NCBI GenBank assembly: GCA_051748045.1
Contig: JBNJGY010000050.1
Span: 1 to 12,341 of the forward strand
From: Thermotogota bacterium
GTDB lineage: Bacteria > Thermotogota > Thermotogae > Petrotogales > Petrotogaceae
DNA length: 12,341 nt
Direction of reading: 5' to 3'
In this document: piece after piece, positions 2,592 to 9,045 of the stretch
Position numbering within the stretch: position 1 is the first letter of the stretch
Layout of the letters: the number at the start of each line of letters is the position of its first letter
Position numbers and translations under genes: made by a program
Notes under the pieces: generated by a model
The model's input: the letters and a program-made list of their open reading frames with translations, nothing else
The model's database searches: none
Told to the model about the DNA's origin: nothing

Positions 2592-2623
2592 AAAAAGAGG
2601 TGATTTAAATCACCTCTTTTTTT
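2590..2623. terminator. Bidirectional intrinsic terminator between convergent zupT and the 570-aa gene
   Basis: Perfect 34-bp palindrome A7-GAGGTGATTT-AAATCACCTC-T7 filling the gap between the two stop codons. Confidence 0.92.
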
Positions 2624-4335
2624 TACATAAGATCGTTAATATTTTTCTTATTATTTTTTAAAAAATCATCGAAAATATATATTTCTTCTTTATTATCTAA
2701 TATTTCTCCTGCTTTGTAAGAATTTTCAAAACTAGCAAGTTTATCTTCAGGTATTCCAGAAAAATATGATAATTTCTTCTTGTCTTTCAATAAGTTTATA
2801 AATATTTCTGGATATTTTTCTATGTAAAAATTGAGTTCATTTTCCTCATTATAAAGCAATCCCTCTTTATCTAAAATATGATAATAAGCTTCTTTTGTAC
2901 CTGTTTTATTTGCAATTGTAAGAGCTTCTAAAAGTACCAAATTTTTATTCAGTTTATCCCAGTTAACTATTTCTGGGTAGTCATTTTTTAAGTTTTTAAA
3001 ATACTGAACAGCTTTTTCAGCTTCTTCAAAATTTTTAGTATAGTTAGCCATTAAAGAATAATGAACAATCTTTTTATAAACATAATTAAAATCAAAATTG
3101 GTTATTTTCTCTTTGTTTAACAAGGATTTTATTTCTTCTAAAATAAGTCTAGTTTTATTGTAATAAGATGTGTTCAAATCATCTCCGAAAAATCTATCTT
3201 CGTTGTAAGCTAAAAATTCCATTCCTCTGATATTCATTGTTTCAATTATATCTTCAACAACATTCTCGAACCCAATGTTTAGTAGTTCTAAATTTTTAAA
3301 ATAAGGATCTATATATTTTTTTAATTCAATATTGAAACTGTTTACACTAATAATTTCACCTTCTGAAAAATAAATATGTTCACTATTTTTTTTGTCAAAA
3401 CCATAAACATTTACATTTTTTGGAATTTCAAATTCATTCACTAAGATAAACTTATTATCGTATAAAAAATATTCTCCAGTACTTACTTCATCTATTTGGT
3501 GTTTAAGAGCAAAATATTTTTTAACTCTTGAATCCTTGTTGCTATCTATATAAGCTAAATCTGGATATAAAAGTTTCCCAATGTTACCTAAAGTTATTCT
3601 TGAAAAGTTCTTTTCCGGTAAAAATATCTTATTAGTACTTACAGCATCTAAACGATTATCATAATGATAAATCCAATCTTTATCTATACTGTAAAAACTT
3701 TGACTAAAAGAAGTTTCAAATTTTGAAATATTTTTGAAAGGGTCAGAAAAATTTCTTATATAATTAATATCATATTTTTCACCATCTTGATTAGCTTTAA
3801 AATCAGAGATAATAAAAACCTTATCAAAAATTTTAATTCTAGATTTTAGTGAGAATGGGTTTGATTTTTCACTATATTTTAAAAGATGAATATCTTTGTT
3901 ATTTTTATAATCAACAAAATGAAACTCTGAAGTATCTCCGTTTATTACTTTGATAATTATTATTTCTCCGTTTGGATGAAAATAAACGTCTGATGCTTTT
4001 TTCAAAATAACATAATTCAAATTTACTTCTGAATCATAAACATAAACCAAATTATTTTTTGCAATACTCGCTAGTTTGAGTCCATCGTTTGATATAATAT
4101 ATTCAGAAAATTCTTCTCCAGTATACAATGATTTTATATTGTTTAAATCAGATGAGTCCCAAGCATATATATCATAGGTATTATTATCAAAAACATGAGT
4201 AACTAATATATTCATTTCATCATAAAATGTTCCAGTATATGTATAGTTGGTTTGTTTTTCATATTCTTCAAAAGTAATAGAAAAAATAAAAATATTAAAA
4301 ATTAAGAATATCATTATAAAAAGTTTTTTATACAT
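2623..4335 (-). CDS. Exported hypothetical protein, 570 aa (signal peptide, probable beta-propeller N-half, helical/TPR-like C-half)
   Basis: Long ORF with SD AAGGGGG. Signal-like MYKKLFIMIFLIFNIFIFS. WD40-like turns ISNDGLKLASI and VYFHPNGEIIII. Helical segment NFEEAEKAVQYF. Fold assignment is inference. Confidence 0.75.
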   Translation of the reverse strand: MYKKLFIMIFLIFNIFIFSITFEEYEKQTNYTYTGTFYDEMNILVTHVFDNNTYDIYAWDSSDLNNIKSLYTGEEFSEYIISNDGLKLASIAKNNLVYVYDSEVNLNYVILKKASDVYFHPNGEIIIIKVINGDTSEFHFVDYKNNKDIHLLKYSEKSNPFSLKSRIKIFDKVFIISDFKANQDGEKYDINYIRNFSDPFKNISKFETSFSQSFYSIDKDWIYHYDNRLDAVSTNKIFLPEKNFSRITLGNIGKLLYPDLAYIDSNKDSRVKKYFALKHQIDEVSTGEYFLYDNKFILVNEFEIPKNVNVYGFDKKNSEHIYFSEGEIISVNSFNIELKKYIDPYFKNLELLNIGFENVVEDIIETMNIRGMEFLAYNEDRFFGDDLNTSYYNKTRLILEEIKSLLNKEKITNFDFNYVYKKIVHYSLMANYTKNFEEAEKAVQYFKNLKNDYPEIVNWDKLNKNLVLLEALTIANKTGTKEAYYHILDKEGLLYNEENELNFYIEKYPEIFINLLKDKKKLSYFSGIPEDKLASFENSYKAGEILDNKEEIYIFDDFLKNNKKNINDLM

Positions 4336-4421: not shown

Positions 4422-5585
4422 CTAAAAAGCTTCTAAAATGACTCTATCTAAAACTCCATGTAAATAAGATATAATTACCCCATAATTGAAAATAGGAATA
4501 TTTAACCTTTTAATATGTTCTAATCTTCTCATCATCATTGTTCTTGTAAGTGTACACCCTCCACAATGTATAATTATTTTAGTGTTTTCTGTATCCTTTT
4601 TATCTGGAAATTCTTTTCCTGCTATAAAATCAAAAATCAACTCTTTGTTACTATATTTTTTTAACCAGTTAGGTATTTTAACTCTACCAATGTCCTCAGC
4701 TAATGGTCTGTGAGAGCATCCTTCCATAATTAAGATTCTATCACCATCTTCGAGTTCTTCAATAATATCTATATCTTTAGATAAAATATCCAAATCACCT
4801 TTATGTCTAGCTTCTAAAACAGAAAAAGTTGTCAAATTAATACCTTTTGGAACTAATTGATTTACTTCTTTGATTGCTTGTGAATCTGTTATTACAAGCT
4901 TCGGTTTTTCTTTCAATTTGCTCAAAATTTTTGGTATTCCTTCTACAGAAGTTTGAATTGGAAAAGATTCTCTGTCTAATAATTCTCTAATAGCAGTAAC
5001 TTGTGGCATTATTAGTCTGCCTTTTGGTGCTCCTGTATCAACTGGAATAACCAATACTACTATATCATTTTCTTTAATGAATTCTGGGATTAAAGGAACA
5101 TCCTTTTCTTCTGGTTTTATTTCTGTTATTTTTTGTTTCAATTCTTCTATTCCAGCGTTCTTTTTTGCTGATACTTTGATAAAATTATTATCTTTAATAT
5201 TTTCATTATTAATATCAATTTTATTTAAAACAATCAAATATGGAATATCATACTTTTTGAATTTTTCGATTATTTTATTATCATGCTCATCTAATTCATT
5301 ATCTATAATTAATAGACCTATGTCACCTTTCATAAAAGCTCTTTCAGCTATTTTTACTCTTTTTTCTCCTATTTCCCCAACATCATCTATTCCTGGAGTA
5401 TCTATTAGAGTTACTGGACCAATTGGTTGCAATTCCATTGTCTTATAAACAGGATCAGTTGTAGTTCCTGGAGTATCAGAAACCAGAGAAATATCCTGTT
5501 TTAAAAGAGCATTAATCAATGATGATTTTCCAACATTTCTTTTTCCAGTAATTATTATATTTAATCTATATCCACCTATTGACAT
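4422..5585 (-). CDS. hydF: [FeFe]-hydrogenase H-cluster maturation GTPase/scaffold HydF
   Basis: GTPase motifs GKRNVGKS, TTTDPV, DTPG, NKID, VSA. Also PKGRLIMPQV and ITDSQ, and the Fe-S ligands CSH...HCGGC. Confidence 0.97.
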   Translation of the reverse strand: MSIGGYRLNIIITGKRNVGKSSLINALLKQDISLVSDTPGTTTDPVYKTMELQPIGPVTLIDTPGIDDVGEIGEKRVKIAERAFMKGDIGLLIIDNELDEHDNKIIEKFKKYDIPYLIVLNKIDINNENIKDNNFIKVSAKKNAGIEELKQKITEIKPEEKDVPLIPEFIKENDIVVLVIPVDTGAPKGRLIMPQVTAIRELLDRESFPIQTSVEGIPKILSKLKEKPKLVITDSQAIKEVNQLVPKGINLTTFSVLEARHKGDLDILSKDIDIIEELEDGDRILIMEGCSHRPLAEDIGRVKIPNWLKKYSNKELIFDFIAGKEFPDKKDTENTKIIIHCGGCTLTRTMMMRRLEHIKRLNIPIFNYGVIISYLHGVLDRVILEAF

Positions 5586-5589
5586 TTTT

Positions 5590-6645
5590 TCACCTTCCCA
5601 AAGCTTTTGTTGTTATAGGACATATTTTAATGTTTCTTTTTTCAAGTTCATCTATTGTTTCAAAAAAGTCTATTTTAGCTTTATTATCATAGATATTATA
5701 GTTTTCTCTAAATTTATTTGGAGTAATATTAACCATAACTACATTACAAAAATATTCCAAAGCATCGTAATGTGTTTTAAGATCAAGTGTACCTAAAGCT
5801 GTAGTAACTGGCATCTGAGCATTTGGCACTACAAACCTCGCAGCACAACAAGCATTCATTGTTTTAGTTATTGAACCATTTTCTAAATTTTCATAAGGTG
5901 TATTTTTTGATGCAATAAGTGGACCTATTCCAATCATAATAACTTTTTCATTTCTAATAAACAACAAATCATCTGCAATGTTTGAATCAGTTTGACCAGG
6001 TAACCCTATAATAAAACCTGAACCAGTCACATAACCTATAGAATTCGCATACTTTAAAAGCCCCAGTCTTTTTTCATAATTTTTATCTGGATTTACTTTT
6101 TCAAATAAATTTTGGTTAACACTTTCATGTTTTAAAAGAGTTCTTATAGCCCCAGCTTTTTTATATCTGAAATATGACTCAAAATCTCTTTCACCTATAG
6201 AAATTGAAATGGGGAGTTTAGTTAAATTCTTAATTTTTTTAACAATACTAATAATCTTTTCATCATCATAGAAAAAATCTTCTCCACTTTGGAGGACTAT
6301 TGTATCCAGACCTAAATCTTTAACCTTCTCAACAGCATTTATTATGTCTTCTTCAGACATTCTATATCTTTTTATAGAACTATTATCTCTTCTGATACCG
6401 CAGTAATCACAGTTTTTTGAGCAATAATTGCTAAATTCAATTAGTCCTTTTATAGAAACATAATCAGCAGTAAAAATTTTTTTAACTAAAGAAGAAGCCT
6501 TATAAATCAGTTCCCTTTGAGGGTCATCTTTTTCCAAACTCAAAATATACAAAATATGTTCTTTATTTAGAGTTTTGTGTTCAGTAAAATAATCTAAAAG
6601 TTTTCTTCCTTGATCATCTAATTTATCATAAACGCTTTCAAACAT
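5590..6645 (-). CDS. hydE: [FeFe]-hydrogenase H-cluster radical SAM maturase HydE
   Basis: IEFSNYCSKNCDYCGIR (CX3CX2C), RYRM, VLQSGED, GLPGQT, TTAL and C-terminal YxxY (YNIYDNK). Located between hydG and hydF. Confidence 0.92.
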   Translation of the reverse strand: MFESVYDKLDDQGRKLLDYFTEHKTLNKEHILYILSLEKDDPQRELIYKASSLVKKIFTADYVSIKGLIEFSNYCSKNCDYCGIRRDNSSIKRYRMSEEDIINAVEKVKDLGLDTIVLQSGEDFFYDDEKIISIVKKIKNLTKLPISISIGERDFESYFRYKKAGAIRTLLKHESVNQNLFEKVNPDKNYEKRLGLLKYANSIGYVTGSGFIIGLPGQTDSNIADDLLFIRNEKVIMIGIGPLIASKNTPYENLENGSITKTMNACCAARFVVPNAQMPVTTALGTLDLKTHYDALEYFCNVVMVNITPNKFRENYNIYDNKAKIDFFETIDELEKRNIKICPITTKALGR

Positions 6646-6654
6646 ATAACACCT

Positions 6655-8067
6655 CTAAAAGTATAAATCTCTTTCTCCAAATTTTATTTTTTCAATATTT
6701 TTAATCAATGCAGTTTTCATTTTTTCATCTTTTATGTTGTTAATTTCTTTATCTATAACGCTTAGACAAGATTCCTTCGTTTCTTCAGAAGCATAATCAG
6801 TCACATACTCCATAAGCGTGCTAACCGCGTTTGGAGTACAAAATCTTTTAACAAAACCTGGAATTGCAAATTCCATAAAATGTTCACCCGTTCTTCCAAG
6901 TCTATAACAACCAGTACAAAATGAAGGAAGATAGTTTTCATCTGTGAGTTGTCTTATAACTTCATCAAGAGTTCTTTGATCTCCAAGAACAAACTGAGAT
7001 TTCTTGTAAGCTTCTTCATCCTCCGTTGAGTAAGCCCCAACACCAATGTTAGAACCAGCATCTATTTGTGATACACCAAATTTCATCAACTCGTTTCTAA
7101 TTTCAAGAGATTCTCTTGCTGTTAAGATTAACCCTGTATAAGGAACAGCTAATCTCAAAATAGCAACCAATTTTTTAAAAGTGTAATCATCTACTAAATG
7201 AGGAGGTTGTTCAGAAATTGGAGTGTTTAAAGCTGGTTCAATCCTCGGAAAAGATATTGTGTGAGGACCCACGTTGAACCTTTCCTCAAAATGAATAGTA
7301 TGAGATAACAATCCCATCATTTCAAACTTCCAATCGTACAAACCAAACAATGCCCCTATTCCAACGTCATCAATTCCAGCTTTAAAAGCTCTATCTAAAG
7401 AATAAAGTCTCCATCTATAACTGGATTTTGGACCACTAGGATGTACTTTTTTATAAGTTTCTTCATGATAAGTTTCTTGAAAAACCTGATAAGTTCCAAT
7501 TCCAACATCTTTTATCTTTTTAAAGTTTTCTACAGTTTGAGGAGCAGCGTTTATATTAACCCTTCTAATATTCCCTTTTCCACTCTGAACAGAATAAACT
7601 TCTTTCACTGTATCTGCAATAAAATCCGCATCATATTTAGGATGTTCACCATAAACAAGGATCAACCTTTTGTGTCCGCTATCCACTAAAGAAGTTGTTT
7701 CATTTTTCACTTGTTTTAAATTCAAAGAATTTCTATAAATTTCATCATTAGATACTCTAAATGCACAATACTCACAATCATTAACACAATCATTTCCGAT
7801 ATACATAGGAGCGAAAAGAACAATTCTATTTCCATACACGCGTTCTTTTAAAGTTCTTGCTCCTTCAAATATTTTCTTCACAAGCTCTTCATCTTCACAG
7901 TTCAATAAAACAGCCATTTCTTCTAACTCTAGTCTTTGTTTATTCAAAGATTTATTTATTATTTCTTCAACTCTTGCTTTTTCTGGATTTTTAGTTTCTT
8001 CCAACAAATAATTTATTTTTTCTTCATCTATAAAAGTTTTAGTTTCATTGTCTTTTAAATAGAACAT
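6655..8067 (-). CDS. hydG: [FeFe]-hydrogenase H-cluster radical SAM maturase HydG (tyrosine lyase)
   Basis: N-terminal CVNDCEYC, FQETYH, GPHTISFPR (dangler-Fe His), and a C-terminal auxiliary cluster motif CX2CX22C (CTGC...FCTPNA) that distinguishes it from ThiH. Confidence 0.97.
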   Translation of the reverse strand: MFYLKDNETKTFIDEEKINYLLEETKNPEKARVEEIINKSLNKQRLELEEMAVLLNCEDEELVKKIFEGARTLKERVYGNRIVLFAPMYIGNDCVNDCEYCAFRVSNDEIYRNSLNLKQVKNETTSLVDSGHKRLILVYGEHPKYDADFIADTVKEVYSVQSGKGNIRRVNINAAPQTVENFKKIKDVGIGTYQVFQETYHEETYKKVHPSGPKSSYRWRLYSLDRAFKAGIDDVGIGALFGLYDWKFEMMGLLSHTIHFEERFNVGPHTISFPRIEPALNTPISEQPPHLVDDYTFKKLVAILRLAVPYTGLILTARESLEIRNELMKFGVSQIDAGSNIGVGAYSTEDEEAYKKSQFVLGDQRTLDEVIRQLTDENYLPSFCTGCYRLGRTGEHFMEFAIPGFVKRFCTPNAVSTLMEYVTDYASEETKESCLSVIDKEINNIKDEKMKTALIKNIEKIKFGERDLYF

Positions 8068-8077
8068 AATATCACCT

Positions 8078-8326
8078 CTAATATTTTAAAGTATGTGATT
8101 TAACTTTTACTCCATTAATTTGTCCTAACTTACCATTAAGAGAACCTATTTCGTCTGTAGTACCTTTGAAAACAATAAAAATAATTGCAACATTATCATC
8201 TTTCATTGGGTACCCTACTCTCAAATGTATGTTTTCAGCATTCAAATGCAGGACTTCATTCACTTTATTATAAGCATTTTCTCTGTCTGAAATAGCAATA
8301 GAAATCATAGCAGTTTTAATTTCCAT
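8078..8326 (-). CDS. TM1266-family iron-only hydrogenase system putative regulator (82 aa, ACT/ferredoxin-like fold)
   Basis: VNEVLH...IHLRVGYP...IGSLNGKLGQINGVKVKS pattern typical of this family. Sits directly upstream of hydG. Strong SD AAGGAGGGGG. Confidence 0.9.
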   Translation of the reverse strand: MEIKTAMISIAISDRENAYNKVNEVLHLNAENIHLRVGYPMKDDNVAIIFIVFKGTTDEIGSLNGKLGQINGVKVKSHTLKY

Positions 8327-8333
8327 AAAAAAA

Positions 8334-8468
8334 TCCCCCTCCTTGTTATAAAATTCTCAAAGGAAGAGGGGAAAATATATCAAATCACGCACTATAAAGT
8401 GCGAGATGATTCCATTTATTTTCGTCTTCCTTTGATGTCAGAAATACTCCTTCACCTCAGGAAAAATA
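8334..8468 (-). ncRNA. Candidate cis-regulatory leader RNA of the hyd maturation operon (alternative anti-SD structures)
   Basis: Long imperfect hairpin 8357-8435 with an 11-bp perfect basal stem TCAAAGGAAGA/TCTTCCTTTGA and apical CGCACT/AGTGCG. Its 3' arm can instead pair with the SD. Pairings were found by eye. Confidence 0.55.
8343..8360. promoter_or_regulatory. Rex-like operator 2 (TTGTTAT-AAAA-TTCTCAA), abutting the SD of the first operon gene
   Basis: 18-bp 7-4-7 imperfect palindrome resembling the Rex consensus TTGTGAA/TTGTTAA-N4-TTCACAA/TTAACAA. Confidence 0.55.
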
Positions 8469-8473
8469 TTTAC

Positions 8474-8491
8474 TTGTTCAAATATTAACAA
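8474..8491. promoter_or_regulatory. Rex-like operator 1 (TTGTTCA-AATA-TTAACAA) overlapping the predicted transcription start
   Basis: 18-bp palindrome, one mismatch from TTGTTAA-N4-TTAACAA with an AT-only spacer, 4 nt downstream of the -10 element. Confidence 0.72.
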
Positions 8492-8495
8492 TCTC

Positions 8496-8504
8496 AGTAT
8501 AACA
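8496..8504 (-). promoter_or_regulatory. Extended -10 promoter (TGtTATACT) of the hyd maturation operon
   Basis: TGn-TATACT immediately downstream of the upstream gene's terminator. No clear -35. Confidence 0.6.
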
Positions 8505-8516
8505 ATCAAACTTTAC

Positions 8517-8563
8517 AAAAAAATTAAGAAAAGAATGATAAAATAAACCATTCTTTTCTTAAT
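8517..8563 (-). terminator. Rho-independent terminator of the small GNAT gene, insulating the hyd operon
   Basis: 15-bp perfect stem ATTAAGAAAAGAATG (8523-8537) / CATTCTTTTCTTAAT (8549-8563), followed by a T-run on the minus strand. Confidence 0.8.
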
Positions 8564-8571
8564 GATAAAAA

Positions 8572-9045
8572 TTATAGTTCTTTAGACATTCTATAATTTG
8601 TTATGTTGAAACCCATTTTTTTATACAATTCAAATGCTGATTCATTATGTCCAAAAACATGCAGATCTATCTTTTTAAAACCTTTTTCCTTTGCTGTTTC
8701 TTCGAGAACTTTCATAGCTTCTTTCCCATATCCTTTTCCTCTGAAATCTTCAAAAATAATTATATCTGCCAAAAAAGCTGTTTCTCCTTGTTCTATAAAC
8801 CAGATATAACCAATATGTTCCTTATTTTCAGATAAATAAATATTATACATATAGTTATTTTTAGTATCGGGTCCTTCAGGAAGCATTTTATCAAAAGTTT
8901 CTTTTGCTAAGTTATAGGCTTCTTTTTCAGACCAATTTCCAGATTTGACTTTTTCATCTGCATAGTTTTTAATTGCATAATCAGAATAATTCTTATAACT
9001 ATCTACATCCATTTTCAAAAATAAAACTTTACTTTCTCCCATCAT
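8572..9045 (-). CDS. GNAT family N-acetyltransferase (single domain, YycN-like)
   Basis: IIFEDFRGKGYGKEAM (motif A) and LHVFGHNESAFELYKKMGF (motif B). SD AAGGTG. Confidence 0.92.
   Translation of the reverse strand: MMGESKVLFLKMDVDSYKNYSDYAIKNYADEKVKSGNWSEKEAYNLAKETFDKMLPEGPDTKNNYMYNIYLSENKEHIGYIWFIEQGETAFLADIIIFEDFRGKGYGKEAMKVLEETAKEKGFKKIDLHVFGHNESAFELYKKMGFNITNYRMSKEL

Follow-up and report, generated by a model that had tools for sequence, protein, structure and literature searches.

A widely conserved hairpin RNA in the leader of a TM1266-hydG-hydE-hydF gene cluster with the apparent logic of an attenuation and translation switch

Genes and features of the locus

The window, i.e. the whole stretch of 12,341 nucleotides analyzed here, is a single entire contig of a 2.41-Mb genome. 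Its minus strand carries a gene for a GNAT domain protein, followed by a TM1266-family gene and by hydG, hydE and hydF (Table 1). The TM1266, HydG, HydE and HydF assignments all exceeded the curated family cut-offs and agreed with the Pfam results, and hydG-hydE-hydF (4422..8067) appear to be the H-cluster maturase genes under the predicted control of the leader described in the following. A gap of 245 nt separates the GNAT gene from the TM1266-family gene and contains the switch element. The intrinsic terminator of the GNAT gene (8563-8523) is the upstream limit of the leader unit. As remarked in a first-pass annotation that had been made from the sequence, the leader is richer in GC than its surroundings, with 36.3% in 8334-8468 compared to 27.0% for the window and 13.6-27.8% for nine intergenic stretches.

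Directly upstream of the leader, a promoter-like site was read that agrees with the consensus at 8 of 12 positions. It was missing from the consensus scan because that scan required 9 of 12. In relatives, similar TATAAT-like boxes are found directly 5' of the conserved motif. The transcription start implied by the promoter-like site would lie at about position 8475, around 10 nt 5' of the sensor hairpin. Metatranscriptome run X2 yielded contigs identical to positions 7600-7888, 7966-8117 and 8110-8341 and none across 8342-8475; at a depth of about 2-3, these contigs cannot show where transcripts start or end, and the gap speaks neither for nor against transcription or termination of the leader.

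Table 1. Positions of the genes, leader segments and predicted structural elements in the window
Feature	Position	Strand	Basis or remark
GNAT gene	9045-8572	minus	GNAT domain (Pfam)
Intrinsic terminator of the upstream GNAT gene	8523..8563	minus	17-pair stem and T run (terminator scan)
Promoter-like site	8482..8509	minus	TTGATT 8509-8504, 16-nt spacer with TG 8490-8489, TAATAT 8487-8482; sequence reading
Segment A	8468-8457	minus	UAUUUUUCCUGA
Conserved sensor hairpin (A:B element), about 41 nt	8425..8465	minus	MFE fold, covariation, covariance models
Sensor P1	8465-8459/8431-8425	minus	7 bp
Sensor 2x2 loop 1	8458-8457 vs 8433-8432	minus	GA vs AA
Sensor P2	8456-8453/8437-8434	minus	4 bp
Sensor 2x2 loop 2	8452-8451 vs 8439-8438	minus	AA vs GA
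Sensor P3	8450-8448/8442-8440	minus	3 bp in the window (3-4 bp among relatives)
Sensor variable end loop	8447-8443	minus	
Segment B	8435-8417	minus	UCAAAGGAAGACGAAAAUA
Variable middle hairpin	8371..8423	minus	fold; predicted in both states, nucleates the antiterminator
Segment C	8377-8357	minus	UAUUUUCCCCUCUUCCUUUGA
Segment C core	8357..8367	minus	UCUUCCUUUGA; forms the antiterminator (ON) through 11 bp with 8435-8425; alternative partner is the SD segment
Terminator-like, SD-sequestering hairpin	8335..8369	minus	MFE fold; CCUCUUCCUU 8369-8360 with AAGGAGGGGG 8344-8335, 10 bp, 15-nt loop
Segment D	8343-8334	minus	AGGAGGGGGA
U7 tract	8327..8333	minus	sequence; between the hairpin (A at 8334) and ATG 8326-8324
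TM1266-family gene, 82 aa, first after the leader	8078..8326	minus	PF21699 91 bits; TIGR03959 92 bits; PDB 2NZC E 1e-23
hydG	8067-6655	minus	TIGR03955, 523 bits
hydE	6645-5590	minus	TIGR03956, 292 bits
hydF	5585-4422	minus	TIGR03918, 502 bits

Alternative folds of the leader

The first-pass annotation had proposed that four leader segments, A to D, can pair in two mutually exclusive ways, and all four were recovered exactly on the minus strand. The hairpin that it formed from B and C is complete, with its 11-bp base (8435-8425/8367-8357), the 7-bp GAAAAUA/UAUUUUC helix and the apical CGCACU-UUAU-AGUGCG stem. The opposite arrangement, in which A closes on B and C pairs with the SD, proved to be the unconstrained MFE fold, which consists of the A:B hairpin, a middle hairpin and an SD hairpin. 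The C:D register originally read from the sequence (8373-8364/8343-8334, with two G-U pairs) is legal and represents a slipped equal of the MFE pairing.

The MFE fold of 8475-8320 has an energy of -46.5 kcal/mol (z = -4.5), and none of 200 shuffled sequences was as stable. At 37 C, the OFF state has -46.7 kcal/mol and the ON state with forced B:C pairing -45.3 kcal/mol. As forcing B:C costs only 1.4 kcal/mol, the two states are near-isoenergetic. The proposed 1-2-3-4 logic of the switch thus holds, with the alternative pairings present in the sequence and the OFF and ON energies close to each other. In the model, these energies converge with rising temperature and are equal at 75 C. When shorter transcripts were folded, the RNA ending at C (8357) was predicted to adopt the B:C form (-41.3 kcal/mol) and the RNA ending at D to return to the three-hairpin OFF form. 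Neither the length nor the sequence of the middle hairpin is conserved among relatives.

Since the SD hairpin is followed by an A and seven U residues before the ATG, it resembles an intrinsic terminator, too. The scan for terminators did not list it because loops were limited to 3-8 nt in that scan and the hairpin has a 15-nt loop. Such a loop is long for a terminator, and termination at this site is a prediction.

A conserved sensor hairpin with two-fold symmetry

Comparison of TM1266 upstream regions revealed an element of about 41 nt that is common to 18 of 25 related genomes; the stretch from there down to the start codon is variable. This sensor is the inner structure of A:B and more than the plain A:B helix described before, since two further helices and a pair of conserved 2x2 purine loops lie within it. 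In a MAFFT alignment of the 18 leaders, 94.4% of the cells were paired and compensatory changes occurred at 6 of the 14 pairs (for example AU/GC/GU at 14-37, AU/GC at 21-30 and CG/UA at 6-45). Pairing fell to 45-64% when the 3' partners were slid in this alignment, and slid controls overall ranged from 34.8 to 64.3% paired. Compensatory changes were present at 10/14 pairs among 84 matches from several phyla and at 9/14 pairs among 72 non-Thermotogota matches, the latter two alignments having been fitted to the model and therefore leaning towards it. Conservation and covariation were thus both found in orthologous leaders and, as judged by comparison of sequences, the cis-regulatory RNA at 8465-8425 is real and widely conserved.

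Column counts for the 84 matches yielded the consensus CUGA-N4-AAGG for both strands of the sensor. The counts were C 84, U 84, G 73, A 72 and A 61, A 68, G 73, G 81 for the top strand and C 81, U 74, G 55, A 67 and A 60, A 77, G 80, G 84 for the bottom strand. Occurrence of the same consensus on both strands implies a two-fold axis through P2, which in some relatives is a palindrome (GAUC/GAUC).

Covariance model R1, the seed of which comprised the 18 leaders including the window copy, matched a single site in the genome of the window with an E-value of 1e-13. Model R3 was seeded with non-Thermotogota sequences only and likewise recognized one site in this 2.41-Mb genome, namely 8424-8468 on the minus strand (40.6 bits, E 8e-7); the E-values of both models are rough. 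When positions 8200-8650 were compared with Rfam 15, no family reached its gathering score and none was found at E <= 0.01. The top-scoring model was PyrR (20.6 bits compared to a gathering score of 54, E 1.6) and the lowest E-value was that of anti-hemB (19.6 bits compared to 49.5, E 0.031). Membership in the PyrR family (RF00515) is ruled out by this score. The same picture emerged for 12 related loci from several phyla, with no Rfam match at E <= 0.05. In line with the initial impression from the sequence, the leader therefore falls outside every Rfam 15 family, including T-box, SAM-I to SAM-VI, TPP, cobalamin and glycine elements, and as far as the searched libraries go it appears to represent an uncatalogued RNA family.

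Distribution of the motif and genes following it

In a sample of 151 genomes from the phylum of the window, the motif was present in 83, TM1266 in 89 and HydG in 95. Motif and TM1266 occurred together in 80 genomes, the motif alone in 3, TM1266 alone in 9 and neither of them in 59. The three motif-only genomes are 94% (G057), 76% (G086) and 94% (G135) complete, and two of them are also devoid of HydG. Six of the 95 genomes encoding HydG have neither motif nor TM1266. Five of these belong to one genus and are 99% complete, and in the two of these that were inspected, the tmRNA-like gene end known from a sister genome also stands before hydG, but the leader-TM1266 block is missing. None of the nine genomes with TM1266 alone gave a match to R1; application of model R2 to five of them resulted in a weak match at hydG in G054. 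The TM1266-hydG clusters of two others, G003 and G065, gave no model match and are preceded only by a diverged look-alike leader of the type ACCUGA-CAG-AAA-AGA(GAAA)UCU-AAA-CUG-AA-AGG, which is followed by a terminator. The number of matches per genome is one to three only. A match in G125:C8 (29.6 bits) resides within a coding region beside sufBD/sufS-like genes and is probably due to chance.

At least 80 TM1266 loci were found in species genomes of Cloacimonadota, Melioribacter/Ignavibacteria, Neomarinimicrobiota, Fidelibacterota and Thermotogota (Marinitoga, Thermosipho, Pseudothermotoga). Among the matches listed, the motif is located just 5' of TM1266 on the same strand in 78 of 80 cases. 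These comprise all seven Thermotogota-named loci among the matches listed (R1) and 71 of the 73 remaining loci listed (R2), each with a distance of 40-150 nt between motif and gene; one of the two exceptions lacks upstream sequence. Each of the five complete genomes among the matches listed has one motif match, always at TM1266. In an even sample of 150 genomes from the phylum of the Ignavibacteria-type genome, three contained the motif, and all three had a TM1266-like ORF downstream as judged from the N-terminal sequence.

The element is not limited to one operon but is also found before hydG, hydF-aspA, transporter and TonB-receptor genes, and its occurrence extends over several phyla. The arrangement TM1266-hydG-(small ORF)-hydE(-hydF) includes the window. 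In other cases the motif precedes hydG-hydE-hydF without TM1266, which is then encoded at a distant locus that is devoid of the motif, and a second motif copy occurs 5' of hydF-aspA(-sdaAB). Loci of the Neomarinimicrobiota type have the order TM1266-hydE-hydG. In Ignavibacteria-type loci, TM1266 is followed by a gene for a TonB-dependent receptor, the best matches of which, all below threshold, are heme/hemoglobin receptors. One complete genome without HydG has kept the combination of motif, TM1266 and TonB receptor. Furthermore, the motif precedes an SsuA/NMT1-like ABC transporter in one genus and an ECF S-component followed by TM1266-aspA-hydF on one metagenome contig. A pattern scan of metagenome contigs located 29 sites on 28 contigs. 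Their neighbors, judged by N-terminal translations and, for some, by Pfam, covered the spectrum just described. According to one account of H-cluster assembly, aspA/sdaA are linked to the nitrogen of the dithiomethylamine bridge (PMC11736057), which places them in the same pathway as the hyd genes. In one RNA-seq table for Thermotoga neapolitana, the TM1266 homolog, hydG and hydE appear together among the CO2-induced genes (PMC7039931).

Predicted mechanism of the switch

Based on folding models, the leader from 8475 to 8327 appears to be a combined transcription-attenuation and translation switch with its sensor at 8465-8425. During transcription, the 3' half of the hairpin (8435-8425) would have a choice of two partners, the 5' half and segment C (8367-8357). 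Without anything to keep the hairpin closed, B:C would form and lengthen the middle hairpin by 11 bp, leaving the SD free and allowing read-through, and the operon would be ON. A bound factor that keeps the hairpin closed would leave C unpaired and able to form the hairpin with the SD (8344-8335) that is followed by U7. Transcription would then stop before the ATG, the SD would be hidden in any full-length RNA and the operon would be OFF. Stabilization of the sensor should mean OFF because its 3' half pairs alternatively with the 5' arm of the terminator/SD hairpin. Since B:C is predicted to win until D has been made, whatever holds the hairpin over about 25 nt of synthesis would decide the outcome. 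From the folding models we infer that the decision in the window must be kinetic, and the direction of the switch is deduced from the same models. At equilibrium without any factor the model slightly favors OFF, which counts against a factor-driven switch. Besides the translational control originally proposed, through hiding of the SD, there is probably a transcriptional level of control through the terminator-like hairpin with U7.

Beyond the hairpin, conservation extends to the logic but not to the sequence. A pyrimidine segment farther downstream can pair with the 3' half of the sensor and some adjoining G-rich bases, and it is also the 5' arm of a hairpin with a U run shortly before the start codon. 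A set of 62 TM1266 leaders was analyzed, consisting of full-length R1 matches upstream of TM1266 genes plus L168. Partial matches (L067, L100, L139, L154, L161, L165, L169) and the leaders L004, L042, L044, L048, L063-L066, L073, L074, L076, L078 and L082 were excluded. A strict script detected hairpin and U run in 39 of the 62; many of the 23 leaders without a strict U run stem from Cloacimonadota and have diverged motifs. The full RNA keeps the sensor in 36 of these 39 leaders, and in 35 of 39 the RNA cut before the 3' arm of the terminator re-pairs the 3' half of the sensor downstream. After L026, L019 and L105 had been dropped because the script had picked an earlier U run, re-pairing was seen in 35/36 leaders compared to 219/720 (30%) when the downstream part was dinucleotide-shuffled. 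Thermotogota use GGGAGGGG/CCCCUUCC for this pairing and the other phyla GGGAUGG/CCAUCCC, indicating that the three-way complementarity has persisted although the sequences have changed.

One family of relatives has no separate SD segment of this kind: the 3' strand of the sensor doubles as the SD, be it for hydF, TM1266 or a short upstream ORF with a terminator after it. In every architecture the closed sensor would correspond to OFF according to the folding models, i.e. the same polarity would be achieved on another platform. The leaders share with known attenuators a stem-loop followed by a U run and an exclusive antiterminator that uses the 5' arm of the terminator. They share with riboswitches a conserved sensor on varied platforms (terminator, SD-in-P1, upstream ORF).

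Candidate factors acting on the sensor

As the factor that closes the hairpin we favor the TM1266-family protein, possibly loaded with a ligand, and assign a probability of roughly 0.45 to this proposal. The ACT-like homotetramer of TM1266 would bind the two-fold symmetric RNA with CUGA-N4-AAGG on both strands, and the operon would be self-repressed in a way comparable to PyrR acting on the pyr leader. In favor of this proposal, TM1266 is present in 80 of the 83 motif-containing genomes of the 151-genome sample, the exceptions being 76-94% complete. The TM1266 gene is also present in genomes whose motif stands at hydG or hydF with no TM1266 gene nearby, in one genus after the lepA and endonuclease V genes. 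TM1266 is the first gene after the motif at most loci, and the pair survives in a genome without HydG. Membership of the candidate regulator's gene in the regulon and its co-occurrence with the RNA are features shared with autoregulatory leaders of the PyrR or r-protein type. A DNA-binding domain was not found in TM1266 with Pfam and TIGRFAM-type profiles. The structure 2NZC is described as a homotetramer (PMC12626770), which suits an RNA with a dyad.

Several observations speak against TM1266. The same Pfam and TIGRFAM-type profiles revealed no recognized RNA-binding domain, and the charge of the protein is about neutral with 10 K/R and 9 D/E residues. As a rule, ACT-like domains are binders of small molecules. 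Motif and TM1266 both travel with the hyd genes and are thus confounded, and joint loss is uninformative because TM1266 is usually adjacent to the motif and one deletion removes both. The nine genomes with TM1266 and no R1 match, among them those with the diverged look-alike leader, count against the proposal as well. Furthermore, three transporter classes, an ECF S-component, an SsuA-like ABC transporter and a TonB receptor, belong to the regulon, and the presence of several transporter classes is a classic signature of metabolite riboswitches. A PDB sequence profile search with TM1266, a structural-genomics protein deposited in 2006, retrieved 2NZC and beyond that the RelA ACT domain and NikR at E~0.3, a likeness that was set aside as too weak.

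The transporter genes lead to the alternative that the two purine loops directly bind a small molecule or an ion, perhaps two copies of a ligand or a symmetric one, and that the RNA is a true riboswitch that is OFF when the hairpin is stabilized. TM1266 would then be a regulated gene for handling of the ligand. We regard this as the main rival, somewhat less likely than TM1266. Both kinds of effector suggested in the first-pass annotation, a metabolite and the TM1266 product, are still candidates. It would account well for the near-invariance of the loop and closing-pair nucleotides in five phyla in the face of variable flanks and a variable end loop, for the combination of one sensor with at least three platforms (terminator, direct SD occlusion, upstream ORF) and for the occurrence of uptake genes of three unrelated classes alongside biosynthetic genes, and the size of the element is within the range of known small riboswitches. 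However, we find no candidate ligand for which OFF would make sense for H-cluster synthesis and a heme/iron-type TonB receptor at the same time, and the hairpin is simple and rod-like, has no junction and gave no sign of a pseudoknot in the alignments. The tie to TM1266 at the genome level, which persists when the gene is unlinked or HydG is lacking, is not required by a riboswitch, and the exact dyad more naturally fits a symmetric protein such as the TM1266 oligomer that we prefer.

Action of another trans factor or of none, be it a global regulator recognizing GGA such as CsrA, a different protein, a small RNA or an RNA thermometer, is unlikely. AAGG(A/G) is indeed found on both strands of the sensor and again in the SD, but a global regulator would be expected to have many targets, whereas there are only one to three matches per genome, and the examined matches lie at hyd/TM1266 genes except for the leaders of two transporters within a single genus and the probable chance match in a coding region. 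The GGA bases, moreover, are mostly paired in P3 and P1 and in this respect differ from a CsrA site, which presents GGA in a hairpin loop, and the conserved CUGA falls outside such a site. The modeled convergence of the ON and OFF energies up to 75 C would suit a thermometer, yet the sequence-specific conservation of the loops exceeds what a thermometer needs. That the structured 5' UTR or chance complementarities have no regulatory role at all is very improbable. The ease with which purine-rich, SD-like repeats pair with pyrimidine runs in AT-rich genomes, reflected in re-pairing of 30% of the shuffled sequences, would agree with it. Against it stand the conservation across phyla with compensatory changes, the match of the independent model R3 to this site alone in 2.4 Mb and the consistent position before the same gene family.

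If the favored assignment to TM1266 is taken further, the protein might be the founder of a new class of attenuation proteins that bind RNA with an ACT fold, probably in response to a ligand, and that occur in at least five phyla; we put this forward as a tentative proposal with somewhat less than an even chance of being correct. A symmetric TM1266 oligomer would then clamp the CUGA-N4-AAGG dyad operator and switch off the H-cluster maturases, their ammonia-lyase partners and, in some lineages, uptake genes of the iron/heme type.

Relation to published work and known regulatory systems

In the parts of the literature covered by our searches, no published description was found for regulation of [FeFe]-hydrogenase H-cluster synthesis (hydE/F/G), for an RNA element at hyd genes or for the function of TM1266. 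What is new here is the RNA family; the mechanism of attenuation combined with SD occlusion is standard in itself. The element is of interest because of its wide occurrence among phyla, its connection with TM1266 and the first handle that it provides on control of [FeFe]-hydrogenase maturation: 45 nt with an OFF logic, present in five phyla. With it, the role of TM1266 as a "putative regulator" can be put to a direct test. It also places aspA/sdaA in the same regulon as hydF and may be of use as a control part for engineered hydrogen production in thermophiles.

Among known systems, the PyrR attenuator (RF00515) has the same four-part logic with a stabilized anti-antiterminator, an antiterminator and a terminator. 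There, the operon starts with the gene for its own regulator, which acts at several sites per regulon, an arrangement also seen here with TM1266 as the candidate. PyrR is the only Rfam model that aligned with the full leader (8325-8470), and it did so by the three-hairpin shape only. Sequence and shape of the sensor differ, and the candidate protein is ACT-like instead of having a phosphoribosyltransferase fold. THF-II/folE and NMT1/xanthine riboswitches consist of an interrupted helix of about 40-55 nt with the ligand pocket in internal loops. Like the present element, they have conserved loop nucleotides and an OFF platform that involves the 3' strand of P1; unlike them, the leader studied here has two loops in exact dyad and no Rfam match. 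In the SAM-III/SMK box the SD is located within the sensor helix, as in one family of relatives of our leader. There is, however, no similarity of sequence or at the level of the model, and in the window the SD would be sequestered by a separate segment and U7 would add termination.

The GA versus AA oppositions (RA/RA) with conserved closing pairs recall the tandem sheared purines of kink-turn/L7Ae-type motifs. A kink-turn was rejected because it has a 3-nt bulge followed by tandem G.A/A.G pairs, whereas both 2x2 loops in our sensor are symmetric, have no such bulge and occur as copies 4 bp apart in dyad. TRAP and HutP are small oligomeric proteins that are activated by ligands and bind single-stranded triplet repeats in leader RNA. 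The concept of a choice between terminator and antiterminator is alike, but the target here is a base-paired, covarying hairpin and the candidate belongs to an unrelated protein family.

Expression platforms and apparent rearrangements of the hyd leaders

The short hairpin that serves as the sensor in the leader of the TM1266-hydG-hydE-hydF operon was found to be coupled to another type of output in seven of the related leaders (L076, L085, L073, L084, L189, L193 and L204). Here, the 3' strand of the sensor doubles as the Shine-Dalgarno sequence of a short upstream ORF of 13-60 codons, which is followed by a terminator-like hairpin; translation of the main gene would begin another 130-240 nt along. 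In these leaders the same sensor is combined with a different expression platform.

At one locus, represented by L100 and L200, the motif occurs twice. The two copies are separated by 2.1 kb and enclose an AbiEi-like gene together with an ORF of 265 aa, with the second copy residing upstream of TM1266-hydE-hydG. This arrangement has the appearance of an insertion within the leader, with duplication of the sensor. In four loci from a single genus (L026, L023, L214 and L215), a tRNA-like 3' end (...GGTTCGATTCCCGCCGTCTCCACCA) precedes either the hyd leader or hydG directly, and the block consisting of leader and TM1266 is present or absent at one identical junction after this end, which probably belongs to a tmRNA gene. 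Within the window, position 8388 of the plus strand is A rather than C in a single contig from the DNA metagenome run X1 (depth ~4), a substitution that alters the base pair closing the apical stem in the variable middle hairpin.

Features of the window and of related loci
Feature	Location	Strand	Remarks
Motif, first copy	L100 307-347 (= L200 8779-8809)
Motif, second copy	L100 2399-2439 (= L200 6687-6717)
Look-alike leader	L086 (genome G003), L087 (genome G065)		ACCUGA...GAAAGG; upstream of TM1266
570-aa ORF	window 2623-4335	-	86 nt 3' of hydF, same strand
~85-aa ORF	L079 2075-2341; L064 1772-2041; L076 2142-2396		between hydG and hydE
Model match L068	G125:C8:41848-41894		29.6 bits; inside coding region

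The look-alike leaders of genomes G003 and G065 are diverged and were not detected by the motif covariance models. Their hairpin has a P2 of 3 bp and a 3x3 A-rich loop and is followed by a terminator, the 5' arm of which matches the 3' strand of the hairpin. The HydG of the G003 cluster scored 629 bits, as opposed to 495-551 bits in most of the phylum and 512 bits in G065, and this unusually high score suggests that the G003 hyd cluster is of different origin.

Neighboring genes

In Ignavibacteria/Melioribacter-type loci (L150, L121, L094 and L193), the gene after motif and TM1266 encodes a TonB-dependent receptor of ~765 aa, whose nearest families, below cut-off, are heme/hemoglobin receptors; in one contig of this group an EamA transporter is also next in line. 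No HydG was found in the complete genome carrying L150. The model match in genome G125 lies just 5' of sufBD-like and cysteine-desulfurase-like genes, i.e. at an Fe-S assembly locus, and is probably due to chance.

Many relatives share a conserved ORF of ~85 aa, without Pfam match, in the hydG-hydE gap; it is missing from the window, where hydG and hydE are 9 nt apart. The 570-aa ORF, for which searches of Pfam and NCBIfam returned no match, could be the terminal gene of the hyd operon.
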